Notes under the pieces: generated by a model
What the model was told of the DNA's origin: nothing
What the model saw: the letters and a program-made list of their open reading frames with translations, nothing else
The model's database searches: none
Part shown: positions 24,101 through 64,000 of the stretch, piece after piece
Position numbering within the stretch: position 1 is the stretch's first letter
Layout of the letters: each line of letters begins with the position of its first letter
Position numbers and translations under genes: made by a program
Source: Isurus oxyrinchus
Lineage: Eukaryota
Direction: 5' to 3'
Assembly (NCBI GenBank): GCA_026770705.1
Contig: JANJGN010000035.1
Span: 3,844,001 to 3,908,000 of the forward strand
DNA: 64,000 nucleotides

Positions 24101-25070
24101 GAGGTGGCTTCCTGTCATGCAGCTGTGATATTCTTTTTAACCAGCAATGCAACTCCCCCAGTACTTCTACATCCCTCTCTATTCTGCCTGAAAATTCTAA
24201 ATCCTTGATCGTTTATCTGCCAATCCTGTTTGTCCTTCAAACAAGTCTCTGTAATCGCAATAACATCATAGTTCCGAGTACTAATGCAACTTCTTAGCTC
24301 ATCTGCCTTGCCTGTTATACTTCTTGCATTGAAACAAATGCATTTCAGACACCCAGTCCAACTGTGTTCAGTAATTTCTCCCTGCCTGCTCTTCCTCTTC
24401 GTCCTACTGGCCATATTACCTAGTTCTCAATCACTTATTTCTCCTGCTGACCTATTGCACTTCTTCCAAACCCCCCCCGGCTCCCCCCGGCCATACTAGT
24501 TTAAACCCTTTTGAGTGACACTAGCAAACGTCGAAGCCAGGATATTGGTGCCCCTCCAGTTAAGATGCAACCTGTCCTTCTTGCCCCGGAAGAGATCCCA
24601 GTGATCCAGATTTTGGAAACCTTCCCTCCTTCACCATCTGTTGAGCCACATGTTTAGCTGCAGTTTCTTCCTTATTCTAGCCTCACTGGCATGTGGCACA
24701 GAGATTAATCCTGAGATTACAACCCTAAAAATCCTGTTTATTAACTTTCTGCATAAATCTCTGAGCTCCTGCTGCAGGACCTTGTCCCTCTTCCTGCCAC
24801 TGTCATTATTACCAATGTGTACAACGACTTTGGGCTGTTCTACCTCCCCCTTCAGAATGTCCCTTACCGATCAGCAACATCCTGGATCCTGACACAAGGG
24901 AGGCACAATACCATCCTGGACAAAAACAGAATTACCTGGAAAAACTCAGCAGGTCTGGCAGCATCGGCGGAGAAGAAAAGAGTTGACGTTTGGAGTCCTC
25001 ATGACCCTTCGACAGAACTTGAGTGAGTCCAAGAAAGGGGTGAAATACCATCCTGGTGTCTCTTTCACGA
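21190..25070 (-). mobile_element. CR1 LINE (ORF1 end, EN, RT, 3' end) with a nested CR1 3' end at 21971-22303
   Basis: LKCICFNARSITGKADEL...IAITET (EN); KSLGPNGIYPSVLRE; VPQGLVLGPLLF; LVMPHLEYCVQF. Confidence 0.88.
24920..25043 (-). mobile_element. Solo PLE pLTR mini-insertion with a 13-bp TSD
   Basis: Nearly identical to ~1222-1350. Flanked by aataccatcctgg at 24907-24919 and 25044-25056. Confidence 0.9.
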
Positions 25071-33872: not shown

Positions 33873-34767
33873 TCAGTTTTTTTGTTTGTTAATTAACCGA
33901 ATAAATGATGTTACTGGACATTTCACAGCTCTCTTGATCACTGCCCTGAACTTGGTCTGGGTCGCCCCATAAATAAATGTATTTGTGCAACGGTTTAAGT
34001 TCCGCAGCATATACGTGACTCATTCAAAGATATAAAAAGAATCTTCATCTAAGTGACTTGCAAACTTAAACATATAAAACAGATACCGTCCAGAGGAGTA
34101 TAAAGCTACCGGATATGGTGAAGATTAACACCGCTGACTTCCTTCTGTTCTCCATCTCTGGGTCACTGTGCTTCACTGTCTTGCAATGACCCCCTCAGCC
34201 CCTTCCAGACTCGACTAGCCACTAAAATGTGTCTGACTGTCAGAATGTTGAGTAACAGAATTAAGGCGAATGGGAGCAGTGGTGTTAACACCGTAGCAAA
34301 CCACTTAAATGTCAACCACCCCAAGTTAATGAAATAGCTGGGTTTTCTAACACAGAGCCACTTCACATTTCCAATTATAAATCTAGGATTATATGTAAAA
34401 TAGGAGGGAACGTTTTTTAAACAGAGAAGAATGCAGGTTGTTACCAGGACCAAAGCCGCAGTTCTTGCTGTGCAATATTTAGTTCTCAGCTTCTGACAAC
34501 AAATGGCCACAAATCGATGAAAGGAGAAAGTGATGGTGAACCAAACGGAAATGTCTCTGGCTGCACTTCTCAGTACCATATTAACGTGACACACTTGGGT
34601 GAGGTCTAGGAAACACAGTGGGAAATAATACCAACTGATATTGTTCAGTATAACTTCGGTGATTAGAACCAATATATCCCCCACTGCCATGGCGACCAGG
34701 TAGCGAGTGGTGCCGGTGGAGAGTCCGCACTTTGCCCGGGACAGGATCACAACCGTCACTAAATTAA
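33873..34767 (-). pseudogene. GPR139-like GPCR pseudogene, copy 2, exon 2
   Basis: Acceptor ctttcag|TTAATTTAGTG. DRF>HRF. +1 frameshift in a C-run at 34190-34194, giving TGA at 34163. Second indel ~34065 and an in-frame TGA after IFE. Original stop at 33873-33875. No exon 1 found upstream. Confidence 0.93.
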
Positions 34768-36734
34768 CTGAAAGTGAGAGAGGTAAGGGAAATGTGACTG
34801 GAAATTACTGATCAATGATTCTCGACCTCTTAGTTCGGGCTTTACAAAGTGAATTATTACACAAGAAACGGGGTTGGCAGCAAGTCTGAGATCTGACAAT
34901 AAAGAATTCCAAACACAACCTCTATCTGATCCATTCATTCATTTCCAAGTTTAATAGCCACGGGGCAGGAGGTTATCAGTAGATAGGTCCATGGTCGCAG
35001 GTCGAAAGGCAAGATATTTGCAGGAAAATATGAGGTTCTTATTTAACCTGGCTTTGGGGTTGATTCTTGGCTGACTGGAATTTCCGAAAGGTAAACCAAT
35101 ATATATTATGAGAAATGATGAGTTGTTTCGCAGCACGAATTGGACAGGAGGAGCAGGAGTACCTGGACAAGGCCTCATCCTCGCCCCTAATCTGATTCCA
35201 CCTTAGCAAAGAGCCCACTGTCATTCATTGGACTTCATGCACTGCCCTTGATAGGATTACCCTGGGATCAAACTGATCGCCTGTATGCGATCGGACCTAC
35301 ATTGTTCTGTGGTTTGCTTCGGATCCCTCCCAGCCTAACTGAAAATCAAACCTGCCACCCACTCTATGTCAGTGCAAGGAAGCTATGAATTTAAGAATGC
35401 ACAATTTGTGAGAATGAGGAGTTCTGAAAGTACGAACAGCCTACAGCACCTATGTTTCATCGCGTGTTAATAAACTGTTCCAAGTTCTATTTGTAAAGTG
35501 GCATTCTGAGATTGCTGTAAGCATCATTTTAAAAACAGACACTGCTGAAAATGCACAGTCAGAATAGAGGTGTCTGTGGAAAGAAAAGAAACAGAATGAA
35601 TGTTTCAGGCCGAATAGATCTTCAGAACTGTAACACCTTCGGGATTAACTGATTGAAAGCGATAATAGCCTGGAATAAATGTTGTGCGGGTGGGTGGGCC
35701 AAAGATGTGTGACGGGCAGGAGCATAAGAGTAATTCTGTGGTCAACTGTATGATAGAGCAAAAGGAATGGAGGGAGTTAAAGGAACGAAAAGGGGCTCCG
35801 CAGTAGATGTAAATGTTTCCACGAGAATAGCAGAAGTGGGAGGAAAAATAAGAGGTCCGGGAATCTAGTAGAACGTGATTGGATCCGCAATGATGTAGAA
35901 GATACCGAGGTGCATATATTTATCGGGGTTCCCATCCCAGGGGCCAATGCGAATCTCCTTCCCTTCTCACCTCCCAGTGGCACTTCTGCATCTAGCCCCC
36001 AATAGCAAGAGACAATCTTAGAAAATTGGACCAGTGCTTACCAGCTGAAGTTTCTTCTTAACGCAATTGTTTCCAGCAGCAAATAAATTTCCTTAGCGAT
36101 AAATATTCAAATATAACAATGTAAGTAGGTGAGGTAAAGGGGCCAGCGTGGGACCGGACATCGAAGTGAATAGAGCCCCTATCACTAGCTTTAATTTCTG
36201 CATGAAGACTTAAATGAAGTTTTCAGCAAAGAAATCACTCGATCTACATTTATTCATCTCCAATGTGCGGGAAAGTGCATTCTTCGCATTGAATTCATTT
36301 AATAAATTGGAACGAGTAGATGGAAGTTCCCGTTTCATTGAAATGTTATTTGTGGTGTCCAAGACACTGGTGAAATGGAGATGTTCCACCTCCTAGACTT
36401 GCTGGTGACTGTCCTAGACTTGGACAATCAGTAATCAAAATCAGTTAAATAACGGAATGGATAGTGGCGGTAAAGTTGTTGTGTGGTGTATTGTTATCAT
36501 TTTCAATGTATCAACCAACAGTAAATTTATTATGTGCAATGTAAAAGTGTTGGGAACTTTATCACTCCGTTTTTGGTTTGTCTCTAGTAAAAAAGTAATG
36601 GTAATTTATTCAACAGCGTGTGATTAAGATAATTTTATGAATTGAATGTAATATAACTCCCCGATGTATCGCAATCTGGATAAAAATTACAAATGACTGC
36701 AATTTTATTCCTTGTTAATCAATTTGCTACTAAG

Positions 36735-38630: not shown

Positions 38631-41584
38631 GTTAAATTGGACTATGTCCAATCTGAAAATTAACTGGAATTTTTTCTCCTTTATTTTGTCATCATGTACG
38701 AACAAGTAGCTGACTTCAATGAACATTCAACTGCGCATTGGTTTTCATAGCCAACTTAATCACTTACAATTATTTTTTCTCCCGTGTGCGGTTGGCATGG
38801 CCAACAACCAATGAGGTGTCTCTTTCCACGCCATTGTATTATTTGTTATGGCCGATAATACAATTGAGCGCCAATTAATGCACCAGAGTGTTCATTCTCA
38901 AATCAAGATCGAATAACTTCTTTTTTATGTTGAATACTCAATAGGTTATGAATAATTCCACCAGATTCTGGAGCAAGGTAACATAACTGAAAATCTGCAT
39001 TTTTCTTCCACGAATGCAATTGAGAGTTATCAACAATTTATGCCTTTTAATTTATACACTTTATTCGCTGTCAGGCTAAATAAAAAACATTCGTTATCAT
39101 GACTGAATGGACAATGTGTGTATAGTGCTGTTATGGATGTGGCCAACCCGGGTGAGAAGAGAAGAATGAGCAACAGGCTGTCTATAAGGCACAGGAAGAT
39201 AGTGCCAGGAGTCTCTGAGTGCACCACTTTTTCCAATCAGTATTCAGCTCTGTTCAATTTCTAAGCAGCGTAATTTGCTTGTGTTATTGGAGTGAATTTC
39301 AACTAAGTTGGCAGGAGTCTAGGAAGTCTCAGGTAAAAAACGGGAAGTTCCTTTGGGGTGCAGGAAGCATCTCGGCCAATGGGATTGCCCTCAACATTGC
39401 CACTGAAAGTAATATTTGAGGCATTAACTTTGTTCCCAAATTCCTCCCTTCTCCATCATTTTAGCCAGCTCCGGTATGATGCTGCCACCAAATACAGGTA
39501 CCCTGTCTTGTCTTTCATCATTCTCAAGGGACCGTTCCCTACACTGCACTCTAGCCCATTTCTCACTCACCCCAAGTCCCTTTCTCTTTCCCATACCACC
39601 TCTCTATGTCATCACAGTGCATACAACACCTGTACATTCATCTCAACTCTTGTCACCATACAAGGCTTCAAAAAGTCCTCCCAGGTGGATCAACTATCTA
39701 CTTATGCTTCTTTCAAATGAGTATACTCTATTGCCTTTTCACTATATGATCTCCTGTACAAAGGAGAGACCAAACATTGTCAGTTACCAATTTGTTGGAA
39801 AACTCCATTTAGCCTTGACATTGCTGGCACCGTTGGCCATTCGTAACTGCCTTTGAACTGAGTAGCTTGCCACACCATTTCAAAGGGCAGTTGAGACTAA
39901 AAACAAGATGCTGTCTGTCTGGAGTCACATGTGGGTCAGGCTGGTTAAGGGTGGCGTATTTCCTTTCATGAAGTACATGGGCCGGTTTTCAAGCGAATCG
40001 TTTCAAGGTCACCATCATTGGGACTAGGTTTTCAATTCCTGTTTGTTATTTAAATTCAAATTCCATCAGCTGTTGTGGTGGGATTTGAAATCTTGTCAAC
40101 AGAGTATTCGCCTGGGCCTCTGGATTTCTATCCGAGTGACATTAACACTACGCTTCAATCTCCTTTCGACTGATACTTTTACAGCTGATGCACAGACCTC
40201 AACCACCTTTTCAAAGTTTCAGAAGAAAAAAAAAGCATTCTGGTTCCACTGACGTTTCAAAGAATCCCTTACCGTACTGATTCCAGGTCAAATGACGTCA
40301 GAGTCTGGAATCACTGTGAATATAATCCCTATTCAGAAATCTCTGCAATCACAGATCAAGTATGAGACTCTACTTGCATTCATCATAGTGCCAATCCCCT
40401 CTGAGTCTCCCACTGTGGAATCCATACAAACACAAGCACAATTGGCTACACCATATGCTCTGTGATTTCAAACACAATGATTCACTTGTGGAGGATTTAA
40501 TACAAACCAGCACTGTGACTCACTGTGTAGAGCACTGGATAACCAGATTCAAAATAAGACATAATTTGTGACCCCCATGTCCCGACTCGAATTACAGATC
40601 CACTCTGTGAAATCCCTTGTCGAGTCTCTGCAAGCCCAGACCCACTTGGTGACCCACACTGTAGAGTGCACCTAAGTGCAGTTCAACCCTCTGACCTCTC
40701 GGTGGAGCCTCGGATATTAACGCTAACATTCAAAGTCCTGCTGAGGTGCCTCTGTAAACACAACTTTCTTCTTTACCACGTGTATTCTTTATAACTAGAT
40801 ACGCACTCATGCACATTTTCTGGCACCTATAAGTACAATATTCCCTGTTGACTGCTAGAAAGTGCAGCACAACTCAGTGACTTGCCCTGTGGCATGAGTA
40901 GAACCAACTTGTTCTGATAGACATGGTAATTAATTAACTGGGGGAATTAGGCACAATGAGGGAGACGTGCTCTTCTGGTACGATTCAGATCAAGGAATGG
41001 TCCTTCCACTGGAGCTGGAGAGAGCGAGGCCTGAGCTCTGAAATCCAGAGGCAGTAACAGGGTCCGAATGTAAGTGTTTTGCAGGTGACTTTTCATGTTT
41101 TTAATTCTTTCTTTGAACGAAGGTGGTGTTTCGAATTATGGCCAATGGAGAAACACTGTAATTTATTTATGAATTAGTTAATTTACTTGATGTAACGGAA
41201 ATGTTTGCATTTTTTTTGCAGTAAAGACTTCAGGTAATTAATTAAATGTAATGAGGCAAAGATGTTGCAGAGCTGGTTGTGTATTTGGACTGAAGAATGT
41301 GGCACTGCGTGGATGGTTTTGGGGGACGGGGACGGGCAGATCACTGCGCTGCGGCCTCCCACAAAGTAGGCGGCTCACCTTCTGGGCGACCGTTACCCGC
41401 TCAAAAATTCCTCTCGCACCAGGCGGCGAGGACCCGAGCGTCACTCCTGGTTATTTTCCTTACTCATTAGTTATGGTGCTAACCTGCACAATAACAAAGC
41501 ATCAGGAGTTGCCTTCATGTCAGATTTTCTCGGCACAGAGTCAGTGAAATAGAATTTCAGTTGTAGAAAATGAAGGAATGGGTT

Positions 41585-45144: not shown

Positions 45145-47055
45145 AAGACCATCAGACCCTAAGGCATAGGAGCAGAAATTAGTCCAATCGGCCCATCGAA
45201 TCTTCTCCACCATTCAATCATGGCTAATAAGTTTCTCAACCCCATTCTCCTGCCTTCTCCTCATAACCATTGATCCCCTTACCAATCAAAAACCTACCTA
45301 TCTCGGCCTTAAATACTCTCAATGACCTGGCCTCCACAGCCTTGTGTGCCAATGAATTCCATAGATTCACCACTCTATGGCTAAAGAAGTTTCTCCTCAT
45401 CTCTGTTCCAAAAGGTCTTCCCTTTGCTCTGAGGCCTTCCCCTGGGGTCCTAGTCTCTCCTACTAATGGAAACATCTTCCCCAAATCCACTCTATCCAGG
45501 CCTTTCATTATGCTGTAAGTTTCAATCACATCCCCCCTCATCCTTCTAAACTCCATTGAGTATAGACCCAGAGTCCTCAAACATTCCTCATATGTTAAGC
45601 CTTTCATTCCTGGGATCGTTCTCATGAACCTCCTCTGGACCCTCTCCAGGGCCAGAACACCCTTCCTGAGATATAGGGCTCACAATTGCTCACAACATTC
45701 CAAATGTGGTCTGACCAGAGCCTTATAAAGCCTCAGCAGCACATCCCTGCTTTTATATTCTAGTCCTCTTGAAATAAATGCCAACATTGCATTTGCCTTC
45801 CTAACTACGGACTCAAACTACAAGTTAACCTTAAGAGAATCCTGGACTAGGACTCCCAAGTCCCTTTGCTCTCCAGATTTCTGAATTCTCTCCCCATTTA
45901 GAACATAATTTATGCCTCTATTCTTCCTACCAAAGTGCATGACCTCACATTTCCCCAAGTTGTCTTCCATCTGCCACTTCTTTGCCCATTCTCCTAACCT
46001 GTCCAAATCCTTTTGCAGCCTCCTTGCCTCCTCATTACTACCTATCCCTCCACCTATCATTAGCAAACTTAGCCAGGATTCCCTCAGTTCCTTCATCTAG
46101 ATCATTAATGTATAAGTGAAAAGTTGTGGTCCCCACTCTGACGCCTGCGGAACTACACTAATCACCCGCTGCCATCCAGAGAAGGACACCCTTGTCCCCA
46201 ATCTCTGCCTCCTGCCAGACAGTCAATCTTCTATCCATGCTAGTACCTTGCTTCTAACACCATGGGCTCTTATCTTACTGAGCAGTCTCCTGTGTGGCAC
46301 CTTGTCAAAGGCCTTCTGGAAGTCCAAGTAGATAACCTCCATTTTCTCTCCTTTGTCTAACCTACTCGTTAACTCCTCAAAGAATACTAACAGATTTGTC
46401 AGGCATGACCTCCCCTTGATGAAAACATGCTGACTTTGCCAGATTTTACCAGGCACTTCCAAGTATTCTGAAATCCCATCCTTAATAATGGACTCTAAAA
46501 TCTTACCAACGACAGAGTTCAGGCTAATCGGCCTGTAATTTCCCACCTTTGGCCTCACTCTCTTCATAAACAGGGGGGTTACGTTATCAATTTTCCAGTC
46601 CCCTGAAACCTTCCCTGACTCCAGTGATTCCTGAAAGATCACCACTAACGCCTCCACTATCTCTTCAGCTATCTCCTTCAGAACTCTGGGGTGTAATCCA
46701 TCTTGTCCAGGTGATTTATCCACCTTCAGACCTTTCAGTTTTCCTAGCACCTTCTACTTGGTAATGGCCACCATATTCACCTCTGCCTCCCGAATCTCTT
46801 GAACTTTGGGGATGTCGCTCGTGTCTTCCACTGTGAAGACTGTCGCAAAGTACCTAATCAGTTCCTCCGCCATTTCTTTGTTCCCCACTACTACTTCTCC
46901 AGCGTCATTTTCCAGCGGAAAAATGTCCACTTTTGCCTCTCTCTTAACCTTTATATATCTAAAAAAAAATCTTGCAATCTTCTTTTATGTTCTTGGCTAG
47001 TTTACCCTCATATATAATCTACTTCCTCCTTATTTCTTTTTCAGTTGTCCTCTGG
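45145..47055 (-). mobile_element. CR1 LINE 3' part (RT)
   Basis: KSPGQDGLHPRVLKE, GRSCLTNLL, YLDFQKAFDKVPH. Confidence 0.9.
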
Positions 47056-49045
47056 TAAATTGGACAAGTAGCTGACTTCAATGAACATTAAACTGCGCAT
47101 TGGTTTTCATAGCCAACTTAATCTCTTACAATTATTTTTTCCCCTGTGTGCGGTTAGCATGGCCAACAACCAATGAGGTGTCTCTTTCCACGCCATTGTA
47201 TTATTTGTTATGGCCGATAATACAATTGAGCGCCAATTAATGCACCAGAGTGTTCATTCTCAAATCAAGATCGAATACTCAATACTTTATGAATAATTCC
47301 ACCAGATTCTGGAGAAAGGTAACATAACTGAAAATCTGCATCTTTCTTCCACGAATGCAATTGAGAATTATCAACAATTTATGCCTTTTAATTTATACAC
47401 TTTATTCGCTATCAGGCTAAATAAAAAATATTCGTTATCATGACTGAATGGACAATGTGTGTATAGTGCTGTTATGGATGTGGCCAACCCAGGTGAGAAG
47501 AGAAGAATGAGCAACAGGCTGTCTATAAGGCACAGGAAGATAGTGCCAGGAGTCTCTGAGTGCACCACTTTTTCCAATCAGTATTCAGCTCAGTACAAAT
47601 TCTTAGCAGTGTTATTTGCTCGTATTATTGGAGTGAATTTCAACTAAGTTGGCAGGGGTCTAGGAAGTTTCAGGGAAAACAGGAAGTTCGGTTGGGGTTC
47701 AGGAAGCATCTTGGCCAATGGGACTGCGCTCAGTATTGCCACTGAAAGGAATATTGAGGCATTATCTTTGTTTCCAACTTCCTCCCTTCTCCATTATTTT
47801 ATCCAGCTCCGGTATGATGCTGCCACCAAATACGGGTACCTTGTCTCGTCTTTCATCATTCTGAAGGGACCGTTCCCTCCCTTGCACTCTAGCCCATTTC
47901 TCAGTCACCCCAAGTCCCTCTCCCTTTCCCATACCACCTCTCTATGTCATCACAGTGGATACAACACCTGTACATTCATTTCAACTCTTGTCACCATACA
48001 AGGCTTCAAAAAGTCCTCCCATGTGGAACAACTATCTACTTATGCTTCTTTCAAATGAGTATACTCTATTGCCTTTTCACTATATTATCCCCTGTACAAA
48101 GGAGAGACCAAACATTGACTCAGTTACCAATTTGATGGAAATCTCTATTTAGCTTTGACGTCGCTGGCAAGTCCAACATTTATTGCCCATTCCTAACTGC
48201 CTTTGAACTGAGTAACTTGCCACACCATTTCAAAGGGCAGTTGAGACTAAAAAAATGATGCTGTGTGTCTGGAGTCACATGTGGGTCAGGCTGGTTAAGG
48301 GTGGCATATTTCCTTTCATGAAGTACATGGACCGGTTTTCAAGAGAATCGTTTCAAGGTCACCATCATTGGGACTAGTTTTTCATTTCCTGTTTGTTCCA
48401 TCAGCTGTTGTGGGATTTGAAATCTTGTTAACAGAGTATTTGCTTGGCCTTCTGGATTACTAGCCCAGTGACATTAACACTATGCCTCAATCTCCTTTCA
48501 ACTTTTTTTTTACAGCTGATGCACAGTCCTCAAAGTTCTTTTCAAAAGCATTCAGGTTCCACCGACATTTTAAAGAATTCCTTACCGTACTGATTCCAGG
48601 TCAAATAGCATCATGACTACCCGGTGGAATGACTGTGAATACAATCCTTATTCGGAAGTCTCTGCAATCACAGATAAAGTATGAGACTCCACTTGCATCC
48701 ATCATAGTGCCAATCCCCTCTGCGTCTCCCACTGTGGAATCCATATAAACACAAGCACACTTGGCTACACCATATGCTCTGTAATTTGAGACAAACACAA
48801 TGACTTACTTGCGGAGGGTTTAATACAAGCCAACACTTTGACTCACTGTGAAGAGCACTAGATAACCAGATTCAAAATAAGACATAATTTGTGACTCCCA
48901 TGTGCAGACTCGAATTACAGATCCACTCTGTGAAATCCCCTGTCGAGTCTCTGCAAGGTCAGACCCACTTGGTAACCCACACTGTAGAGTGCACCTAAGT
49001 GCAGTTCCACCCTCTGACCTCCAGGTGGACCCTCAGATATTATAT

Positions 49046-49273
49046 AAAAACAAAACAAAACTGCAGATGCTGGAAATCCAAAACAAAAACAGAATCACCT
49101 GGAAAAACTCAGCAGGTCTGGCAGCATCGCCGGAGAAGAAAAGAGTTGACGTTTCGAGTCCTCATGACCCTTTGACAGAACTCGAAGGGTCATGAGGACT
49201 CGAAACGTCAACTCTTTTCTTCTCCGCCGATGCTGCCAGACCTGCTGAGTTTTTCCAGGTAATTCTGTTTTTG
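49046..49273. mobile_element. Fold-back mini-element of two inverted PLE pLTR fragments with a 15-bp TSD
   Basis: Arms 49084-49174 and 49183-49273, 8-nt spacer, 38-nt extra tail. TSD cctcagatattatat at 49031-49045 and 49274-49288. Empty sites in the paralogs near 17195 and 40708. Confidence 0.92.
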
Positions 49274-49959
49274 CCTCAGATATTATATGCTAATATTCGT
49301 AGGTCTGCTGAGGTCTCTGTTGTGACTCCCCATGTGTATTCTTTAAAATTAGATACACACTCATACACCTTTTCTGTCATCTATAAATAAAAATATTCCC
49401 TGTTGACTGCTAGTAAGTGCAGCACAACTCTGTGACTTGTCCTGTGGCATGAGTAGAACTAACTCGGCTTGTTCTGATAGACATGGTAATTAATTAACTG
49501 GGGGAATTAGGCACAATGAGGGAGTAGTGCTCTTTTGGTACGATTCAGAACAAGGAATGGTCCTACCAATGGAACTGGAGAGAGCGAGGCCTGAGCTCTG
49601 AAGTCCAGAGGCAGTACTTGGATGAGAATATAAGTGATTTGCTGGTCATGTTTCATGTTTTTTATTCTTTCTTTGAACGAAGGCGGTGTTTCGATTTAAG
49701 GCCAATGAAAAATCAATGTAATCTATTTATGAATTAATTAGTTAATTTACTTGATGTAACAGAAATGTTTGCATTTGTTTTGCAATAAAGACTTCAGGTA
49801 ATTAATTAAATGTAATGAGGCAAAGATGTTGCAGAGCTGGTTGTGTATTTGGACTGCAGAATGTGGCACTGTGTGGATGGTTGCAACCTGCATAATAACA
49901 AAGCATCAGGAGTTGCCTTCATGTCAGATTTTCTTGGCACAGAGTCAGTGAAATAGAAT

Positions 49960-51850
49960 TTCAGTTGTAGAAAATGAAGGAATGGGTTTCATTCCTGTGC
50001 AGATTTACCTTGGACATCGGCAGACCACTGATCAAAGCATATGACATGGAAAAGGATGATTTGATTGACAGGAATCTGTGTCGCAAAAATTTCAGAGAGG
50101 TTGGGACGGGGACACACGGACATTGTTCCACTATGCAAGAGCTACTTACAATCTTTTGGTAGTACAGAACTTGAGTTGCTGGCAAAAGTGTCACGTTGAA
50201 GCTTTTCGCCCAGCACTCATCAGGACACTTCATAAGAATACCGAAGTCAGGATAAAACAGCAATTCATATTTTATATGAAGAGGGTATTGATTTGCAAGT
50301 GGACTCTGACTGGTCGAGGCGTTGCCATGGAGAATGCACCAGTGATGGTGACTGACAGTTATCTGCCAGGAATTGTTCGAAATTTGAACCAGGAAGCCTG
50401 ACCTTTATTGGTCAATATATTACCCTGTGTCAGCAAATAACTGTCACTTATGTTGTTTAGCTGGACAAGGCAAATGGTGTAGATGTCTGCAAGAATAGGT
50501 CCCTGCGTATTAATTTAGGTAGTTCCGGGACACAGAAATGTGCCACACTTTGAGCCCAACTGACAATGATAAATTGGTCGTCAGTGTAATTGTGGATTAT
50601 TTAGCAAATGTTACCCAATCACGGAAACACATGCATTGTAGGACACCGTGTTTTGAGTTTTGCAAGCTCAGGCTTGTTTGGTATGATATGTATCTTGAAC
50701 ATTGTGAACAGTGGTTGGGACATGCTGTTTGATTTGATGTGCCAGACTTTGTAATGTATGCCTTACTTACCTAGCATTACACTGGCACTGAAATTCATAT
50801 GCCACGTTAGTCATTTGTGTGATTTGCAAAATGTCTTTTAGGCTGGACTGCAGCATCCTCTTAGCGGCGAATATCATTCATTGTGTTACTACACAGTAGC
50901 AGCGTGAAACAGCTAGCTTCACATCTTGCTTACTCTTTCTTTGAGATACCCTGCATTTCCAGGTTAATCTGACGTACACTCTGCACCTTTCAGAGCTGAA
51001 AGTGTCGGCCTTAGTCATGTTCATGAGTTTGCGTGATACACAGTGCCAAATGATCAGCTCAAGGCAGCAATCGCCTTGCAGGATGCCTTTGATGCGCCCT
51101 ATTGCAGCATCAAGCTTGCATGGTGGGAAAATAGTTGTGGCCCTATTTATAAGATTACTTTTAAGACTAATCATTTGCGTAAGGAACTGTAAGAATTCCA
51201 ACATATATATTGACCAGTGAAGGTAGGCTTGTAGGACGGTGGTGGAGAACTCTATGGAAATTTGTTGAACTGGAATGTTAAGGAAGCGGAGTTCATCTGA
51301 CTGTTCCATTTCATAGGTGAATTTGAGCGAAGGATAGAACCAATTAGGCCTGATAAGAAAGTTCTTACATGCAGCTGTTGAATTAAATGCAGCAAACGTA
51401 TGATCCACATACTGGAAATATGCAGGGCGTAGGAGGTAAGGATCCGTTTCTTTGAAGAAACACTTCTCATGGAAGTCAGCAAAGATGTTTGAGACAGCTG
51501 GACCTAGGAGGGATCCCATGGCAGCAACGTCTATTTGGGCATGCATAGTGTCATAAAAACTGAACTCAACTGCGCAAGTTGCCGGATAACAAAATGCAGT
51601 GAAGCCTTCTTCAGGCCGTGTTGGCCGTTCTATATCGTCACCATATACTGATGTACCGCAAATATCTACGAATTCCTTAAGAGGAATAGTGGTGAATAGG
51701 CTAGCAATTTCAAATGTGCACATGGACACGGCATTGTTATCAATATCTGAGTCCTGTGTGGCCTTCACAAAGTTGAATGAGTCTTTGAACATGTATATGG
51801 AAAACTTGCCAACCAATCAGCACTCTCTTCACAAACAAAATAAATTGTTG
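49960..51850 (-). mobile_element. Old PLE (Poseidon-type) RT/GIY-YIG remnant, unit B
   Basis: 312-aa ORF 50878-51816 with FEIASLFTTIP, AMGSLLGPAVSNIF, YVDHTF, LKFTYEME and LRFLNI. Confidence 0.85.
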
Positions 51851-53269
51851 TTTTCCATTTATAAAGGTCTTCTTCCGAAGGGTCCTGATTGTAAATAATA
51901 TATTTTTATTGTTCTCTTGGGCTCTAGCTTCAAGATTGGACCGTGGCTATAAAAACTACCATGGCTTATTGCATATAAGTCGGGGAGAGGGTGTTCTTTC
52001 GGGAAATCATGTCAATGCCTCAATCAATTCAGCCATGATCTTATTGAATGGTGCAGCATGTTAGAGGGGCAGAATGGACGGTACATTTTCCTATTTATTA
52101 CATCTTAAGATTTTAAGAGCTTTAATTGTAATCCTCGAACATTGCAATGTCCTTTAAAAACCAACCCCCTAGGCTCCAAGTCCACGTTTGCGAAGTATAT
52201 ATTTTGCATGTTGTTCTTGTTAAGAAAAATCAGGTTCACTGTCAACTTTCCATTTCCCACAGTGCTCATTTTTCAGCAATGCAGAGCAGTTCATTTCAGC
52301 AACACACGCTGGTGCCTAGGTGCCAATGAAACGGTCAATGGACGTCATTTCAAACTGAAATCAGCGACTGACATTGATCCAAGCGCTTCACATTAATTCT
52401 GTCAACAACAGCGATTGTTAAATTAGTTATGGCAATTATTGTGTATCCACGCGGCCATCAATCATGAAGGGTTTTTAATTGTCCCAATGTGCTGCCTGAC
52501 ATGTTGATTTCTTCCAGATATGTTTATGTCTTTATGTCAGCTTAGCATCTGCACTGTTTTGCTGATGTCTTGCCAATCTTTCTGCTTTTCCTTGATGTTG
52601 AATATTGTGGTGCAAGGAGTTCCGAGAGAAGAACAATGGTGAACAGAGAAAGAAAATGCTGGGAGACAAAAATGCGCCTCAGACACAGTCGCCACCTATC
52701 GTAGGGGTTCAGTGAACTGTAGCGACTCACAACCTCTCATTCCCAGAGCTTTGATCTATAACCTCATGGCACAATTGAAAGCAGTTCTGGGAAGTGCACC
52801 TGTAATTTGTTTCCAAACTGTTAAAAGCACATTCACAATTTTCAATTTCTTCAACAAACAAAGCAAGAACCACGCGCTCTTCACAGTTTTTGCATTTGCC
52901 ATGTGTCGTCTAAAAATCAAGACTTTTCCTGCATTGCTGGCAGAGACATTAAATTCAAAAGTTAACATAAGCGCATAAAAAACTAATTAATCAGAAGCAA
53001 GTCTCAAAATGTTAACGAAATGTTTTCTGCTGCCGAGAGCCTGATTTCATCGCTTTATCTGCTGATCTCGTTCAGTATTTGAATTTATGCGCACATAAAA
53101 GCTAATTTTGGGAAGGCGTTTAAATTGCTTGAAATTTGGAAAATATTGGGAAACATTTATTCTTTCTACATTATTTGTATCTACACTTTCAAGAAAATAA
53201 TTTTACCATCATTTCTCATGCCAGTTGGACTTTTGACCTTTTGGTGATATTTGGAGTGCGTTAGGACAA

Positions 53270-55150
53270 AGAAGAAAGAGAAGTACAGCACAGGAACAGG
53301 CCTTTCGGCCCACCAAGCTTGTGCCGATCATATTGCCTGTTAAACTAAAACATATTGCACTTCCGGGGTCCGTATCCCTCTATTCCCATCCTATTCATGT
53401 ATTTGTCAAATGCCTCTTAAACACCACTATCGTACCTGCTTCCGCCACCTCCTCTGGCAGCGAATTTCAGACACTCGCTACCTTCTGCATGAAAAAAAAT
53501 CCCCTGCACATCTCCTCTAAAGTTCTCTCCTCTCACCTTAAATCTATGCCCCCTAGTAATTAACTCTTCCATCCTGGGAAAAAGCTTCTGACTATCTTCA
53601 CTGTCCATGCAACTCATATATTTTAAACTTCTGTCAAGTCGCCCCTCAATCTCCGTCGCTCTAGTGAGAACAATCCGAGTTTCTCCAACCTCTCCTCATA
53701 GCTAATAACCTCCAGACCAGGCAGCATCCTGGTAAACCTCCTCTGCACCCTCTCCAAAGTCTACAAATCCTCCTGGTAATGTGCCGACTAGAATTGCTCG
53801 CAATATTTCAAGTGTGGCATTACCAAGGCTTTAGACATCTGCAGCATGGCTCCCCAGGCCTTATATTCAGTACCTCTGCCGATGAAGGCAAGCATGCCCT
53901 ATGTCTTCCTGAATGCCTTATCCACCTGCATTGCCACTTTCAATGACCTGTGGACCTGTAGACACAGATCCCTCTGTCCGTTGATGCACTTAAGGGTTCT
54001 GCCATTTACTGTATAATTAATACCTGTATTACACCTTCCAGAATCCATTACACAGAACAAAGAATACAGAGAGCAAAGAAAAAAGAAAAGTACAGCACAG
54101 TAAGAGGCCCGTTGGCCCTCCAAGCCTGTGCCGATCATATTGCCCATCAAGTAAATAATTTTTCAGTTCTGGGGTCCATATTCCTCTATTCTCATCCTAT
54201 TCATATATTTGCCAAGCTGCGTTTTAAAAGCCACTACCGTACCTGCTTCTACCACATTCTCTGGCAGCGAATTCCAGACACTCGCTACCCTTTGCATAAA
54301 AAACTAGCCCTGCACATCTCCTCTATAGTTTTCTCCTCTCACCTTAAATCTATGTACCCTTTTAATGCACTCTTCCACCCTGGGAAAAAGCTCCTCTCAT
54401 TTTTCCGGATTAAAGTACATCTTCCTTTATTCCGCCCACATCTCCAACCGATCTAAATCCCGTTGTATCCATTGACAATCCTCTTCACTATCTGCAGCTC
54501 ACCAACCTTAGTGTCGTCTGCAAACTTACTCGTTAGTCCAGTTACATTTTCCTCCAAAACATTTACGTATACTACAAATAGCAAAGGTCCCAGCACTGAT
54601 CCCTGAGGAACACTACTAGTCACAGCTCTCCATTCAGAAAAACACCCTTCCACTGCTACCCTCTGTATTCTATGACCATGGCAGTTCTGTATCCATCTTG
54701 CCAGCTCACCTCTGATCCCATGCGACTTTCGACTTTACCTTCTGTACCAGTCTGCCATGTGGGACGTTGTCAAAGGCCTTACTGAAATCCATGCAGATAA
54801 CATCTACTGCCCTTCCATCGTCGATCATCTTTGTCACTTCCTCAAAAAACTCGATCAATTTTGTGAGACACGACCTCCCCTTCACAAAACCATGCTGCCT
54901 CTCACTAATATGCCCATTTGCTTCCAAATGGTAGTAAGTACTGTCACGAAGGAACTTCTCAATAGTTTCCCTACCGCAGACGTAAGGCTCACCGTCCTGT
55001 AATTTCTTGGAATATCCCTGCTACCCTTCTTAAACAATGGAACAACATTGGCCATTCTCCAGCCCTCTGGGACCTCACCTGTAGCCAGTGAGGATACAAA
55101 GATTTCTCTCAAGGCGCCTACGATCTCCTCCATTTCTTCCCTCAGTACTC
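53270..55150 (-). mobile_element. CR1 LINE with nested CR1 3' end; paralog of 21190-23045, truncated by a ~5-kb deletion
   Basis: VPQGSVLGPLLF, SKFADDTKVG. The junction at ~55150 jumps to sequence homologous to ~28015. Confidence 0.85.
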
Positions 55151-55345: not shown

Positions 55346-55630
55346 ATGTGGGAGGGATAATTGGTAGGGGGGAAGTAGACACAATGTGGGAGGGATAATT
55401 GGTAGGGGGGAAGTAGACACAATGTGGGAGGGATAATTGGTAGAGGGGGAAGTAGACACAATGTGGGAGGGATAATTGGTAGGGGGGAAGTAGACACAAT
55501 GTGGGAGGGATAATTGGTAGGGGGGAAGTAGACACAATGTGGGAGGGATAATTGGTAGGGGGGAAGTAGACACAATGTGGGAGGGATAATTGGTAGGGGG
55601 GAAGTAGACACAATGTGGGAGGGATAATTG
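55346..55630 (+). repeat. 38-bp minisatellite, 7 full copies plus a partial
   Basis: Unit atgtgggagggataattggtaggggggaagtagacaca starts at 55346, 55384, 55422, 55461, 55499, 55537, 55575 and 55613 (one 39-bp variant). Confidence 0.97.
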
Positions 55631-58507
55631 AGTGTATGCAGTGGGTGAAAAGACGGATGATTAATGGTACTAGAGTAACAAAGGGAGAGACATAATGGTA
55701 AAAGTGTGATGGGTATTGGGGAGAGGTAATGGAGAGCAGCATTCTGCATTATATTTGTGGAAGAGGAATCAGGGAGTTTTGGGTGGGGTTAATGAGGTAT
55801 TGGGAAGGGACCGTGGGGGAGCAGAATGAGGTAATTGAAGTGTACTAGGGAATGGGGAGGGGAGAAGGTAAGGTGCAGGGAAAAATAAGAAAGTGTAACT
55901 GTGAAAGGGGAGGCAAGTGGTAATGAGAAGTGGTAGTGGGAGGGGGAAGGTGAAAGGTAACGCAGAGGTGTGATGGTTTGGGATAATCTAGGTAGTGCAA
56001 CGGTTGAAGATATGTGGGGATTGATAGGTTGGTGGTGCAATAGGGAGAGGGAGTGCGAAGTCTGAGCGGGGAGGCAAAAAGATGTGGAGGAACCTGGGTC
56101 GAAATGAGGAGGAGAGGGGAGGGGTAATGTGAAAGAGGTAATGGGGACTGGCGAATAAAATGTTTAATAAGGAGGATAAATGTGTTGGCGCATCGGGAAA
56201 GGAGGCTACTGAAGTGTTTCAGGGAAGGTAATGAGGAGTGATGATGGGGGCCAGAGAGAGGAAAGTAACAGGGTGGGGAAAAGAGGAGGGCATGGTAAAG
56301 GCCTATGAGTAGGGTGGATTAATGTTGGTGGAAAACCAGGATTGTTAATGGGGTACGGACAATGTGGAAGTGGGATATGGAAGGAAATGTGCAAAGCGGT
56401 AAATGGACAACGACAATGAGCAAGAGTAATGAGATTGGTGTATTCCAGGAGGGGTAATGGGTGAGGGAAAATGTGGAGTGGTGGCTGGAGCAGGAATGGA
56501 GCTTTATAATGGGGGAGCAATGGGAGAAGTATAATGGTGATGTATAATGATGGATGGATAATTGGAGAGCATAGAGTGAGAGGTAATGTAGAGTTGGAAT
56601 GGGAATTGTGAAGTGGTGGGGACCAGTCAATATCATGGACTAATAAAGAGGGGAATTGGGAGGGATATTGGGTAAGATTAAATGAAACTGGGACGGGTGA
56701 TGTGATAATAGAACTTATAATGGATTTGAGAACTGGATAATGCTAATGGGAATGGGAGATTAGGGAATGATAAGTGTGAGGGAATTCTGAAAAGGAATGC
56801 AAAGTGTGAGGCATAATCAGGAGAGGTAATAGGGAGGTCTTATTTTTACGAGGTTGTATTCGCCCTAGGATTCTGCTATTGTGAATTACCAATGATACTG
56901 CTAAAGTGAGACTCAGCGACACAATTAAGAGTATGCCCATACAGGATCAGATTGGACAGATTAATGTTAGCGCTAGGTATTGATACCATTCCCTGCACTG
57001 TGTTGGGTCTAAAGTACGCAAATTATCTTCATTTTCCTGTTTAATTTGTTTGTGCTGCTATCTCAATAGATATCCTTGCAATAGGCAATACCCAGTTGAA
57101 ACTCACTGAAGTAGTAGTGTTTCAGGAGTACAATTAATGGTGTTGCCCAACATATCGCAAATGTCCCTTATCATGTTGTCACCGAAGATGAGAGACTTGT
57201 TCTTATGGACGGCTTCAATTTCAATTTTTCGTCTTCTCAGGGTAAACGGGAAGAGGTATTTCCTAAATGTGAACTCCTCCATTCCCAGATACCGCTCCAA
57301 TAACCAGCTTTCAACAAAAATGAGAAGCAGTTGAAAATGCGACTTATAGCACACATGCATTTGCAGAATACAGAATGTCTTCTCCAATTTTAACATGCAG
57401 CATGAATGTCTGGTGGCTTCATGAGGCCTCAAGACCAATCCAGTCAGAATGTTCTGTCAGCCTGACAATGGGACTGGGAATGTTATCCTTAACAAGCACA
57501 ACTGTACTGAAATGCGTGATGTTCCTAATGACGGGTTCCAATTTTCATCCATTCGACTGGCTGGCCAACATGACATACGGCCCTGCTGGAGATGAAGTTA
57601 CCACCAAGACTTGTTAGACTGATGTAAGAATAATCGAGTATCTTGCGGTGTATATGATATGAGTTCTCCTCAAGATTCGCTAAATCAATGCTTATTTGGG
57701 CTGCCTTAGACACGTCAAAGCGATGCCCCTTAATGACCTACCTGATCTATGACTGGTTCTGCACCGCATGAATTGGCTAAATGGTTGAGCGAGCTGCTAT
57801 AACCAGTTCTGAAGGAGTTTTCCAAATATACAGTGAAGGTTTCCTTCAATTTTGTGAGATACATATGCATAGCAAAGCCATGTTGATGTGTTCATTCCAC
57901 ATTGCCAGCCTAGTCACTGATGTGCCAGGGAAAAATAGCCATAGGCGTTTGCACTATCTCCAAATATCATGGTGATCACGCCACTATTGTCTGATGCTGG
58001 TTTAACTGAACTTATGAATTTAGCAACCCACATAGTTTGGCTCAGCATTAAAACTATTTACTCCCAAAGAGATCGTGTTTCCATGGGATTCCCATTTCAT
58101 CAGTTTCGAGGAGAAGCATATTTTCAAAAGTCAACTTTTAGGCCTTGCATGTTTTCAGTACATGGCCAATACATTTGTTATTTTTGAATCAGCAACTGTA
58201 TGTACGAATTTCCATACACACCAAATGTAGTCGGACGTCTTTTCTGAATTAAAATAAAACTTTTGGGGCAATAGTTCTCTTGTGCATTCTCCCCCGGGTC
58301 TGCGTGTCGACCAGTCAGAATCCACATGCCAAATATTCAGCACCTTGTTTTTAATGCAATGTAAATCGTAGTTCTGTTCAAAACTTGAAATCCTTGCATA
58401 TTTCCTCATCAGTGCATCGTGAAAAGATTCGACAACATTTCTGTTTTTTTCAGAAATACTTCAGCTCTTTACCACCAAGCTCTACATTTACGTTTGAGTT
58501 TACAGAT

Positions 58508-59580
58508 TAGAACAAAGAACACAGAAAACCACAGTACAGGAACAGGCTCTTCGGCCCTCCAAGCCTGCGCCAACCATATTGCCCGTCAACTAAAACATGT
58601 TGCACTTCCGGGGTCCATATCCTTCTATTCCCATCCTATTCATGTATTTGTCAAGCTGCCTCTTAAACACCACTATCGTACCTGCTTCCGCCACCTCCTC
58701 TGACAGCGAATTCCAGACACTCACTACCCTCTGCATAAAAAAACTTGCCCTGCACATCTCCTCTAAAGTTTTCTCCTCTCACCTTAAATCTATGTCCCCT
58801 AGTAATTGACTCTTCCACCCTGGGAAAAAGCTTCTGATTATCTACTCTGTCCCTGCCACTCATAATTTTGTAAACTTCTATCAAGTCACCCCTCAATTTC
58901 CATCGCTCTAGTGAGAACAATCCGAGTTTCTCCAAACTCTCCTCATAGTAATAACCTCCAGACCAGGCAGCATCCTCGTAAACCTCCACTGCACCCTCTC
59001 CAACGCCCTCATATCTTTTTGGTCATGTGGCTAATAGAATTGCACACAATATTCCAAGTGTGGCCTAATCAAGGATCTCTACAGCTGCAGCATGACTTCC
59101 CAACTTTTATACTCAATACCCCTGCCAATGAAGGCAAGCATACCATAAGCCTTCCTGACTACCTTATCCACCTGCGTTGCCACGTTCAGTGAGCTGTGGA
59201 CCTGTACACTCAGATCCCTCTGCCCATCAATGCACTTAAGGGTTCTGCCATTTACTGTATAATTCCTGCCTGTATTATAACTTCCAAAATACATTACCTC
59301 GCGTTTATCCGGATTAAACTCCATCTGCCATTTCTCCACCCAAGTCATCAACCGATCTATATCCCGTTGTATCCTTTGACAATCCTCTTCACTATATGCA
59401 ACTCCTCCAACCTTAGTGTCGTTTGCAAACTTACTAATTAGCCCAGTTACATTTTCCTCCAAATCATTTATGTATACTTTAAACAGCAAAGGTCCCAGCA
59501 CTGATCCCTGCGGAACTCCACTAGTCACAGCACTCCATTCAGAAAAGCACCCTTTCGCTGCTACCCTCTGTCTTCTATGA
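58508..59580 (-). mobile_element. 5'-truncated CR1 LINE present only in unit B
   Basis: VTSGVPQGSVLGPLLF...SKFANDTKVG. Absent at the paralogous site ~31175. Confidence 0.88.
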
Positions 59581-62519
59581 CTTAACTTCAATGATATACA
59601 CAGTATCCATAAAATTCATCCTAAGGTTATCTCTAACACAAATTCCAAAGCATAACTGTAGCCCTAATCCTTTGCATTCCAGATGCAGTTTGTATTCCAG
59701 ATACAGTTAGGTCTGGACTGAGAGTAGCAGTTAGGATTAGTTTCCATATAAGTGCTAGATTTGATATTAAGGTTAGTGATAGGGCTATGATTAGAGTTAG
59801 GGTTAGTTACATTTAGTTGTATGCTGAGTTAGGATTTGGATTCGGTGTATTTTGACAATTAGGGCAAAAGCTAACTTTAAAGTTTGTGTTTTTGATCATT
59901 GAACATTGATGCATAGCTTTAGGGTTAAAGATTGGTTTTGGGTTAAGGTAACGTTAGAGATAAACTTGGTTTGAAGATTCAATATAGAATGTTTTAAAAG
60001 TTGCACAAAGCTTTCTAGTTAAGTTATGTTTTCAGACCACATTTAGTTTTATAGATGCAATTGCAGTTAGAATGAGAGTCACTGGAATGTTTAGAACTAA
60101 GGTTGTAATGGTGTTAAGATTCTATTTATGTTACGTTTTAGGGTTTCAGTAAGCATTAGGATTAGAGCTACAGTTATGCTTTGGAATTGGTGTTAGAGTA
60201 AAGATTAGGGTGAATTTTATGGATACTGTGCTTATCGTTGAAGTTAGTTTGAATGTTTAACTTTAGGGCTAATGATTCATGTTCAGTGGAGGTTAGCTTT
60301 AGGGTTGGATCTAATAAGCTGAATAGGCTGTCAATGCTGGTGAAATTAAAATTGGGAATGTGCAAATGTCCAAATTATATCAGCACAGATATCTGTTGAT
60401 TTGTGAACGAGGTTAAAGGTATTGGAAAGATTGTAGGTGCTGAAGGAATATACAGTGATAGCGAAGGTTGCGGTAGATGATGATGGAAAGAGGGGGTGGG
60501 GATGCTGGCCATAGAGGAATTTTCAAATAAGGATGGATCTTGTAAAATCAGAGTGTTTGTCAATTAACCAAGGTAGCTTAGCGCGAATTTGGATGACTAA
60601 CGAACTGGACATGGTACAAGAAATGGCATGGAGAGCAGCCTCTTGGATGGCTTCAAGTTTTGGAGGGTAAAATGTGGTACTTTGTTATGGTATGTTTTGA
60701 AATGTCAAGTTCAGAGGAACAGAAAGGCAAGCATTGAGTTTCAAAAGAAGGTAATCTTAGACGGGGGAATATTCAGGTAATGTTAGTGATGTGCAAGTAG
60801 ATGGTCTTAGTGTTGTTATGGGTCACTGCCGCTGCGAAATTTAATGGACAGAAACATCCAGCAGCTCTTAGTCTGGCATGGCAATGTGCTCAAAGATTCA
60901 TGTCGAGGTCAAATATGATGGCAAGCCTCTGAGCACTCGGTTTCAGCCTCAGGTTGTTTCTAAGTAGAAGAGTGGTTTTGGAGTCTGGTGAATAGTGCTT
61001 GTGGCGGGGTTCACAGATAATGATGTCCAGCTTCCCAAACATCAGTCAATGAATATTTCTATCATACTGCATGGGATGGCAGAGAAACAGATTGATGAGT
61101 GATTTGGAGGATGGTGGAAAAGCACTGGAGGAGAACTGCATAATCAGCCATGGCACACGTGTCCAGACCTAAGGGGAGGGAGAATTCCACATGTCACTGT
61201 CACTTCGGATGCCATTTAAGACTTTAGTGAGAAGTTGTTCGGGACATGAGATGCAGCCATTTAAATCATGGAATACAAATAGGCAATTCCCTGAAAGATT
61301 GACATGGGGTTTGGGACGTGACAGCACTTTCATTGACTTTGGAAAGAAAACGAATTTTGGAGGTGGGGTGATCGTTTTCAGGCACAAAGTGGTTAAGTTT
61401 CTTTTTAAAGAGAGGGGTGAAGACTGCAGAGTTAACAGGGAAATGCTCAGAAACTTAAGAAAAATTGGAAGCTTAGATGAAAATATATTGTGTGAGATCT
61501 GCATAATGTGACAACGTCCATCTTGGGTTATAAAAGATACCTGCGGAGACAGTGGGTGCACTGATTCAGATTTTGCAAAATTCCTTACGTCAGTGCACAC
61601 TGGGAGTGAGCAAACATTACATCACTTCTGCAGTCAGGAGGTGGATGGACACAGGCCAATTTTCCTTGACATCGAGCAAATGCTGTATTGTTAAGGAAGT
61701 CTTGATTAATTTTGCAAACCATGGTATGATCAAATAAAGTCAACGTGGTTTATTAAATCATGTTGACAAAATTATTGGCATTTTAAGAATGTACAAGAAA
61801 GAGGCCTCACTACAACTGTAAACAGATTGGCTAAGGCCAAAGCTAGAATGCTGAGCACATTTTTGTCTCCATATTTAGTCAGAGTTATCATTGCATTGCA
61901 GGTGGTCCCACGAAGCATTCCTAAAATGCTCTCTGGGAAGCAATTAAAGCCGTGATTTAATTGGGACTCCACTCTTTGGAAAAACGAGAAGCGCTCCTCT
62001 ATAAGCACATACCATTTTGAAGGGAAAAATACTGAAATGCTGTTCACCAAGCTGACACTGCGAGAAAATGGGAGAATCAGCAAGGCGTAACCTTGTACCC
62101 CAGCATGTTCTGGCACGAGAATGACGAGTAATAATGGGACAACACACAAATTGGAAATTACCGAGCAATGATTTCACTAAGTTTTAATCCCACAATACAC
62201 GCTTTACAATACACTGGTTCATCACAAACACATAATCATAAATCATTATTTTGCTCATCCATAGAGTTGTCAATTCCCTGCAAGTCCTGCTCTTCAGTAG
62301 TAGAGGAAACTAGTCTGACTAAAGGTTGAGTGAGGCATTCTAATTATTTTTATTCCCTTTATTTCAAGGTGGAATATTGTTTCAATGACAACATTGACCG
62401 GCCTCTTCAAATAAAACTTCAGCTATGATTGTCGAATGAGGTATCCATTTATTTGTTTAATTATGATATGAGGTGCCCATTAATGCTTTCATTTGCATTT
62501 CGCGGGAGCCTATCCGACA

Positions 62520-63036: not shown

Positions 63037-63932
63037 TCAGTCTTTTTGTTTGTTAATTAACCAAATAAATGATGTTACCGGATATTTCACAGCTCTCTTG
63101 ATCTCTGCCCTGAACTTGGACTGGGTCGCCCCATAAATAAATGTATTTGTGCAGCAGTTTAAATTTCGCAGCATAAACCCGACTTGTTCAAAGATATAAA
63201 AAGAATCTTCATCCAGGTGGCTAGCAACATCAAAGAAATATAAAACAAATACCGCCCAGAGGAGGATAAAACTGCCAGATATCGTGAAAAGTAACACCGC
63301 TGACTTCCGTCTGTTCTCCATCTCTGGGTCACCGCGATTCTCTGACTTGCATTGACCCCTCAGAACCTTCCGGACCCGACTAGCCACTAAAATGTGTCTG
63401 ACTGTCAGAGTGTTGAGTAACAGAATTAAGACGAATGGGAGCAGTGGTGTTAACACTGTACCAAACCACTTAAACGTCAACCAGCCCAAGTTAGTGAAAT
63501 AGCTGGGTTTTCTAACACAGAGCCACGGCAGATTTCCAATTATAAATCTAGGATTATAAGTAAAATAGGAGGGAACATTTTTTAAACAGAGAAGAATGCC
63601 GGTTGTTGCCAGGACCAAAGCCGCAGTTCTTGCTGTGCAATATTTAGTTCTCAACTTCTGACAACAAATGGCCACAAATCGATCAAAGGAGAAGGTGACA
63701 GTGAACCAAACAGAAATGTCTCTGGCTGCACTTCTCAGGACAGTATTCACACGACACACATGGGTGAGGTCTAGGAAACACACTGGGAAATAATACCAAC
63801 TGATCTGATTCAGTATAACTTCGGTGATAATAACCAGTATATCCGCCATTGCCATGGCCACCAGGTAGCGAGTGGTGCCGGTGGAGAGGCCACACCTTCC
63901 CCGGGACAGGATCACAACCGTCACTAAATTTA
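63037..63932 (-). CDS. Class A GPCR, GPR139/GPR142-like, copy 3, exon 2 (intact; exon 1 beyond the window)
   Basis: Acceptor cttgcag|TAAATTTAGTG. Open frame to TGA with YLVAMAMADIL (TM2), FSFDRFVAIC (DRF), TPLLPF (TM5), FILLW (TM6), NCCTNTFIY (TM7) and QSKFR (helix 8). Confidence 0.92.
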
Positions 63933-64000
63933 CTGCAAGTGAGAGAGATAAGAGAAATGAGACTAGAAATTACTGATCAAAGATTCTCGGTCTCTGAGTT

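Follow-up and report, generated by a model that had tools for sequence, protein, structure and literature searches.

The 228-bp insert at positions 49046-49273 of the window, that is, the whole 64,000-nt stretch of DNA analysed here, is very probably an abortive endonuclease-mediated PLE insertion, whatever the route by which it was made. As to that route, the balance of evidence leans towards one insertion event, dead on arrival, in which a young Neptune-type PLE integrated through double target-primed reverse transcription (TPRT). The window comes from an elasmobranch and contains receptor genes of the rhodopsin family in a duplicated cluster; the insert is composed as follows.

49031-49045, plus strand: left TSD, 15 bp (13-15), recognised against the empty paralogs
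49046-49083, minus strand: tail, 38 nt of PLE 5'UTR between two putative RT start sites, aligning to parent 1185-1222
49084-49175, minus strand: left arm, PLE-sense pLTR with 3 private differences from the family
49143-49183, minus strand: minimal type I hammerhead-like motif in left arm and loop, found by descriptor scan and constrained fold
49176-49181, minus strand: loop, 6 nt of templated PLE sequence (stem I 5' strand and core start)
49182-49185, no strand: centre junction, self-complementary TCGA
49182-49273, plus strand: right arm, inverted tail-less pLTR starting at core position 6
49274-49288, plus strand: right TSD

The two flanking 15-mers are identical at 15/15 positions, and the last 2 nt of the left copy match the element too, so that the TSD measures 13-15 bp. 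When the whole window was scanned, in position order, for perfect 15-mers spaced 60-500 bp apart, this was, among the matches listed, the sole pair outside the tandem array at 55.3-55.6 kb. The paralogous sites near 17195 and 40708, whose flanks are 85-90% identical to the insert locus, are both without the insert. The initial annotation had described a 228-bp insert with a perfect 15-bp TSD, a 38-nt tail on one side and two empty paralogous loci, and all of this is borne out. Both TSD copies carry the insert locus's own variants, which places the duplication of the target after the divergence of the paralogs; since the family copies differ at 0-4 positions over 92 nt while the paralog flanks are 85-90% identical, the insertion long postdates the segmental duplication.

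The tail is unpaired and found on the left side only. The arms extend to a maximum of 92 nt each around a 6-nt loop, with three mismatches (49096, 49130 and 49173), and at all three the left arm is the copy that deviates from the other family copies; the right arm is identical to 2606-2697 at 92/92 positions. The count of about three mismatches had been given correctly beforehand, but the sizes of 91 and 8 nt for arm and loop had left out the innermost pair. The predicted fold of the hairpin RNA has an energy of -175.4 kcal/mol (z -26.8, with 0/200 shuffles as stable), and a transcript of either strand is predicted to fold into one long hairpin at -173 to -178 kcal/mol. With perfect runs of 33 and 42 bp this hairpin may act as a source of small RNAs, a role suggested earlier and structurally possible, which would depend on transcripts reading through the locus. 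The insert itself is probably inert and encodes nothing. Every base of the insert aligns to parent PLE coordinates 1185-1324, within the pLTR/5'UTR of the PLE at <1-2700, in agreement with the earlier claim of a PLE origin and a pLTR-only make-up. The remaining sequences of this family in the window are listed below.

1-1148, minus strand: start of the parent-family PLE ORF, which runs off the window and is broken by stops and frameshifts; N-terminus 38% identical to a full-length PLE protein
1149-1748, minus strand: parent-family 3'UTR/pLTR with hammerhead-like motif (1321-1283), tail (1222-1185) and 5'UTR
1749-2294, minus strand: C-terminal linker (C-x4-C-x2-C) and GIY-YIG endonuclease of a 5'-truncated upstream unit (Pfam PF01541, E 1.1e-5)
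2291-2568, plus strand: ORF fragment in inverted orientation that shares 49 nt with the main unit, a twin-priming-like inversion; with the 49-nt duplication and the filler it takes up 2242-2602
2569-2602, no strand: filler, 34 nt of non-element sequence with local repeats
2603-2700, plus strand: inverted tail-less pLTR of the large insertion, starting at core C3 and ending 72 nt before the start codon
24920-25047, minus strand: solo tail-less pLTR of the same family with a 13-bp TSD, ending 74 nt before the start codon

The parent PLE of the insert is young and, as judged from its sequence, probably Neptune-type. The PF01541 match at 1749-2294, which belongs to the parent copy (the insert has no ORF), exceeds the curated cut-off, and a linker C47-x4-C52-x2-C55 lies ahead of the GIY-YIG domain in a 181-aa frame. 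A CX2-5CxxC linker before GIY-YIG is described as a motif common to Neptune and Nematis (PMC8557442), and Neptune is preferred to Nematis here because the vertebrate sample of a preprint contained Neptune and Poseidon (bioRxiv 10.64898/2026.07.22.740005). The endonuclease part has 23 homologues, the best 6 of which come from sharks and rays at 58-62% identity, and PF00078 is present in 5/23; the DKG region lies at 1-399, with the rest of the RT core beyond the window edge. The parent copy forms its pLTR by a partial tandem, with the 5'-truncated unit (2294-1749) lying ahead of the ORF, whose start is at 1148. In the solo pLTR at 24920-25047 the 5' truncation lies some 30 nt upstream of the hammerhead motif, and the 5' junction shows a 4-nt microhomology. 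TSDs in the family measure 13 and 13-15 bp and are unrelated in sequence, and no tandem arrays were found at the family copies in the window. A search of bacterial and archaeal genomes with a 28-nt pLTR pattern gave 0 matches.

The same pLTR family exists in Carcharodon carcharias, given that residues 108-136 of a COMMD9 isoform X2 model from that species (P0026) form a stretch of 29 residues identical to translated 1323-1237. This in-frame stretch ends at a splice-donor-like CAG/GTAA site of the pLTR (parent ~1238), which suggests possible exonisation. Older PLE sequences are present in the window as well: a relic at 50878-51816 (minus strand) contains an RT-like frame with 27% identity to a full-length PLE protein, and endonuclease-region relics at 47811-48113 and 39473-39775 are about 65% identical to the young family. 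RVT_1 fragments at 46223-46753 and 59079-59615 (minus strand) are probably LINE relics.

The receptor genes and relics of the locus form a tandem cluster, all on the minus strand (63037-63969, 34163-34804 and 2858-3235); the frame at 63037-63969 is open for 310 aa, with GPR139 as the closest solved structure, and the copy at 2858-3235 was assigned by DNA similarity only. A full-length U12 snRNA copy with a short 3' trailer at 41333-41479 (minus strand; Rfam 77.8 bits, gathering 53) is absent from the paralogous sites at 17805 and 49882, has no clear TSD and looks like a captured retrocopy. A 38-bp unit is repeated 7.5 times with 99% matches at 55346-55630, and a segment of about 330 bp recurs several times at 82-87% identity in the duplicated blocks 21183-22586, 53261-54676 and 58507-59581.

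The ends of the family insertions fall at two positions relative to the PLE start codon. The tail-less ends of three separate insertions lie at -75 (49273, the end of the right arm), -74 (24920) and -72 (2700), and the tailed end (49046) lies at -37 to -39, counted on the parent copy. A UGUUUUU tract precedes each start site, the two tracts being 37 nt apart, and primer and template share 2 nt of homology at the tailed end but 0 nt at each of the 3 tail-less ends, in a mapping based on 4 insertion ends. Structured RNA was not seen at the start sites (z +0.93). At either end of the insert, the strand that runs inward from the TSD has PLE-antisense polarity, as a cDNA should have, which supports the initial proposal of an extreme abortive PLE integration.

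This arrangement can be set beside the biochemistry of an anole PLE described in PMC11167929. The protein of that element, predicted to be a dimer, cuts and extends both target strands, starts internally on uncleaved RNA templates at two sites that delimit the tail and needs no homology to do so; the reaction requires the ORF's initial 172 nt, which extend some 55-60 nt past the start region at 111-118. By analogy, the insert would be the product of such a two-site, both-strand reaction in which both cDNAs were short. However, that biochemistry comes from the Poseidon clade and from AC-rich sites in the ORF, whereas the sites here are U-rich and lie in the 5'UTR. By this analogy the two-start-site model would be extended from Poseidon in vitro to a probable Neptune in vivo.

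According to the double-priming reading, the GIY-YIG endonuclease would have nicked both target strands 13-15 nt apart, a spacing taken from the TSD. Each 3'-OH would then have primed a cDNA on uncleaved PLE RNA with the polarity that is seen in the insert, the top strand starting at the tailed site and the bottom strand some 37 nt upstream of it, at the tail-less site. The cDNAs end after about 136-140 and 92 nt at the hammerhead 5' edge, where the motif may have halted them. Joining of their 3' ends at the self-complementary TCGA, with fill-in, would then have produced the order TSD, tail, arm, loop, inverted arm, TSD; the loop is templated PLE sequence and thus belongs to the tailed cDNA. 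Microhomology at the centre junction amounts to 1 nt if exact, or to 3/4 with a G-T wobble against the TTGA of the family. Later decay, visible in part, would include two CpG transitions. The large insertion also carries at its 5' end an inverted pLTR together with the inverted ORF fragment 2291-2568, and this fragment, coming from upstream of the end of the main cDNA, requires a second primed cDNA.

The initial annotation had placed a hammerhead motif in each arm, one with G8>A and one truncated at the core. The G8>A change on the left and the loss of core on the right are both present, but the core is non-canonical in every copy, parent included, through A6>U. Type I topology (stem I, extra nt, stem II, GAAA, palindromic stem III, NUH) is complete at 1321-1283 and in the left arm, where the motif has a 5-bp stem I, the extra nt, a 5-bp stem II, palindromic 15.2/16.2 and a GUC site, and where the core combines the family-wide A6>U with the private G8>A (a CpG transition at 49173). 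The right-arm motif is missing its 5' part, including core positions 3-5 and the stem I 5' strand, as the reported truncation implied. Core position 6 is U in 4/4 window copies holding the full core (1185, 2603, 24920 and the left arm), and a serine in the Carcharodon carcharias peptide is consistent with U at this position. A descriptor scan of the window gave 0 motifs with the canonical CUGANGA core, one (1317-1287) with position 6 freed, and two with positions 6 and 8 freed (adding 49178-49148).

Rfam reported no hammerhead at the motif. Among its 4 matches at E <=1 over the whole window, MIR2118_2 and Plastid-psbJ-1 fall on the insert below gathering score and reflect the hairpin only; its 1 match on the parent motif, a truncated HH9 with E 3.4 on the opposite strand, was rejected. 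An A6C change is described as lowering Mg-dependent hammerhead cleavage (PMC3088659, PMC7151607), and the insert, to judge by its letters, is not a working ribozyme cassette, as it holds no intact core.

Five window segments reach the hammerhead motif, and three of them end at its 5' edge (parent 1314-1324), namely both insert arms and the inverted pLTR at 2603; of the other two, one stops some 30 nt beyond that edge (25047) and the other continues as far as 2290. Since the three motif-edge stops come from only two insertion events, they are a lead and not a statistic. Both arms run 28-38 nt beyond the predicted hammerhead cut site, indicating that the RNA templates were uncleaved; the idea that hammerhead cleavage set the arm ends was therefore rejected. 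In the insertion at 2603, 4 nt come after the cDNA, then a 6-bp copy-back of the same core, the filler and a jump into the ORF. Within the filler, 2592-2597 forms a 6-bp fold-back with 2604-2609 of the hammerhead core; a 6-bp stem was reached by 136/20000 random window fillers and 274/20000 shuffles in a post hoc comparison. A distant template for the filler was sought and discarded, with 1 non-local 8-mer within the first 4 kb, which is chance level. With its local repeats, the filler resembles templated end-joining inserts.

A speculative and rather doubtful extension of these observations is that in this family the hammerhead motif, its ribozyme function weakened by a fixed A6>U change, acts mainly as an RT stop-and-fold site, and that the genome holds many independent pLTR-only palindromes with clustered junctions. 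If so, cDNAs begun at either start site would frequently stop no more than about 10 nt from the motif 5' edge and join at TCGA, and pLTR-only palindromes would be a direct record of inverted pLTR formation, some of which could be re-mobilised or feed anti-family hairpin small RNAs.

The main rival to double priming, possible though on present evidence the less probable account, is a single TPRT event with snap-back. The tailed cDNA would halt past the core, its 3' end would fold onto the TCGA 6 nt back, and DNA-templated copying would proceed to the tail boundary, followed by cutting or release and ligation to the target. This route would account for a loop templated by the tailed cDNA and for a junction that is a self-complementary 4-mer, and the independent fold-back at 2592-2609 (6 bp, 6-nt loop), at the same core position, indicates that cDNA ends may snap back there. 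Palindromes at PLE junctions are read as self-priming in PMC3846280, and microhomology fold-back at yeast breaks yields short inverted duplications (PMC11724301). However, the seed hairpin in the family sequence, with one wobble in 4 bp, is not predicted to be stable. A source variant with a ready-made TCGA/TCGA seed was considered and rejected, both other window copies that cover the position having TTGA and the P0026 codon being Q. Snap-back also needs an extra rule to halt exactly at the tail-less boundary (a copy-back stop within -72 to -75 would be expected in about 4/130 cases if stops were uniform), and the same boundary ends the solo insertion at 24920, which has no inverted partner. 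All arm differences being on one side counts against it too, but the 3-vs-0 split has a two-sided p of 0.25, and the probability of at least 3 arm differences is 0.08 at the five-copy mean and 0.014 at the mean of the other four; the split does not separate double priming from snap-back.

The initial annotation had offered, as its second option, a MITE-like family of non-autonomous palindromes, whose transcripts the PLE protein would re-insert in trans, and this is unlikely. Class II MITEs are bounded by terminal inverted repeats on both sides, with a TSD that is short and fixed. One end of the insert is a 38-nt unpaired tail and the family TSDs (13 and 13-15 bp) have unrelated sequences, so that identity as such a MITE was rejected; identity as a non-LTR retrozyme was rejected likewise, the arrangement being inverted and no family copy having a tandem array. 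The insert does keep both start sites and the tail, pLTRs sufficed to trans-mobilise a host gene in Adineta (PMC3846280), and non-autonomous retrozymes derived from pLTRs have been described, among others from one chondrichthyan genome (bioRxiv 10.64898/2026.07.22.740005). However, the copy count that had been proposed as a check, run within the 64-kb window, found the centre junction in 1 occurrence at <=2 mismatches, and the other family 5' junctions differ, leaving the fold-back family without support. By analogy with the anole element, which requires RNA 3' of the start sites (PMC11167929), the insert would be missing a needed part; in its hairpin (-173 to -178 kcal/mol) both the tail-less site and the hammerhead motif would be sequestered; and retrozymes are arranged head-to-tail whereas the insert is inverted. 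Searches at the protein level with a 64-aa frame crossing the centre junction, a proxy that gives weak evidence, yielded no sequence spanning it: there was no candidate among proteins of near lengths, the 2 matches in a library of representatives were unrelated repetitive proteins (25-31% identity) and 1 match among 11 candidates of longer proteins covered the sense side only.

Still less probable is a longer inverted-pLTR insertion, like that at <1-2700, whose middle was later lost by microhomology-mediated deletion. The long form is present in the window, where its inverted pLTR stops 3 nt away from where the arm of the insert does, and microhomology deletions disable PLE copies in Adineta (PMC3846280). 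However, such a deletion must remove all but 6 nt and create a near-perfect palindrome, in an insert that is young (0-4 differences/92 nt from its relatives). A near-perfect palindrome is, moreover, a less stable structure. An assembly or library artefact in the form of a fold-back chimera is highly improbable, for although near-perfect palindromes are a known artefact class, the mirror here stops at element boundaries, the TSD is direct, the tail is unmirrored, the arms have 3 mismatches and the flanks are colinear with two paralogs.

The product without a middle is mechanistically informative, being the simplest record of the inverted pLTR reaction. Mechanistic work on inverted pLTR formation is called for in PMC8557442, and self-priming was proposed, and left untested there, in PMC3846280. 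A comparison of arms and junctions of such minis across the shark genome would separate double priming from snap-back.

Inverted pLTR ends and tail extensions, given as background in the initial annotation, are indeed documented PLE features (PMC3846280; PMC8557442, PMC2377424, PMC8969392). A search of the open-access full-text literature found no description of pLTR-only palindromic families or of shark PLE ends. In EN+ PLE insertions, as described for Pen2a_Av (PMC3846280), in a general scheme (PMC8557442) and for D. virilis form C (PMC2377424), an inverted pLTR occurs with an optional tail of 30-40 bp. The insert shares with them the head-to-head inverted pLTR, the tail at one end, the shorter inverted copy, the TSD and the palindromic junction, but lacks the ORF, the 3'UTR and the second direct pLTR, and measures 228 bp in total; its TSD of 13-15 bp compares with 8-10 bp in the Adineta examples (PMC3846280). 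PAc, a Poseidon element of Anolis carolinensis (PMC11167929), resembles the insert in its two tail-delimiting start sites, the extension of both strands, the absence of primer homology and the uncleaved RNA. However, synthesis on PAc RNA begins within the ORF, at 111-118 nt in an AC-rich stem-loop, whereas the ends mapped here lie 37-75 nt upstream of the ORF, following U-rich tracts.

Minimal metazoan PLE hammerheads (PMC4209133) have, like those of the insert family, a short stem I, an extra nt between 9 and 10.1, a G10.1-C11.1 pair and palindromic 15.2/16.2, and opposite-strand pairs about 100-700 bp apart are described from Schistosoma mansoni in the same source. In contrast to those motifs, the insert family has U and not A at core position 6 and a 5-bp stem II, and its two motifs abut. 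Non-LTR retrozymes (bioRxiv 10.64898/2026.07.22.740005) are likewise small, non-coding and pLTR-related with hammerhead motifs, but they consist of head-to-tail repeats with complete motifs, whereas the insert is a single inverted pair in which both motifs are damaged. The nearest mechanistic analogue is LINE-1 twin priming (PMC11702581), in which both target ends are primed, the TSD is kept and the cDNA ends are joined with microhomology, and in which template switches of the second cDNA resemble the filler at 2569-2602; the two LINE-1 cDNAs, however, copy adjacent and nearly non-overlapping parts of the RNA, whereas those of the insert copy the same 92 nt. Seen against these systems, the insert is an extreme case of a documented PLE architecture, here without its middle, and is ordinary in kind.
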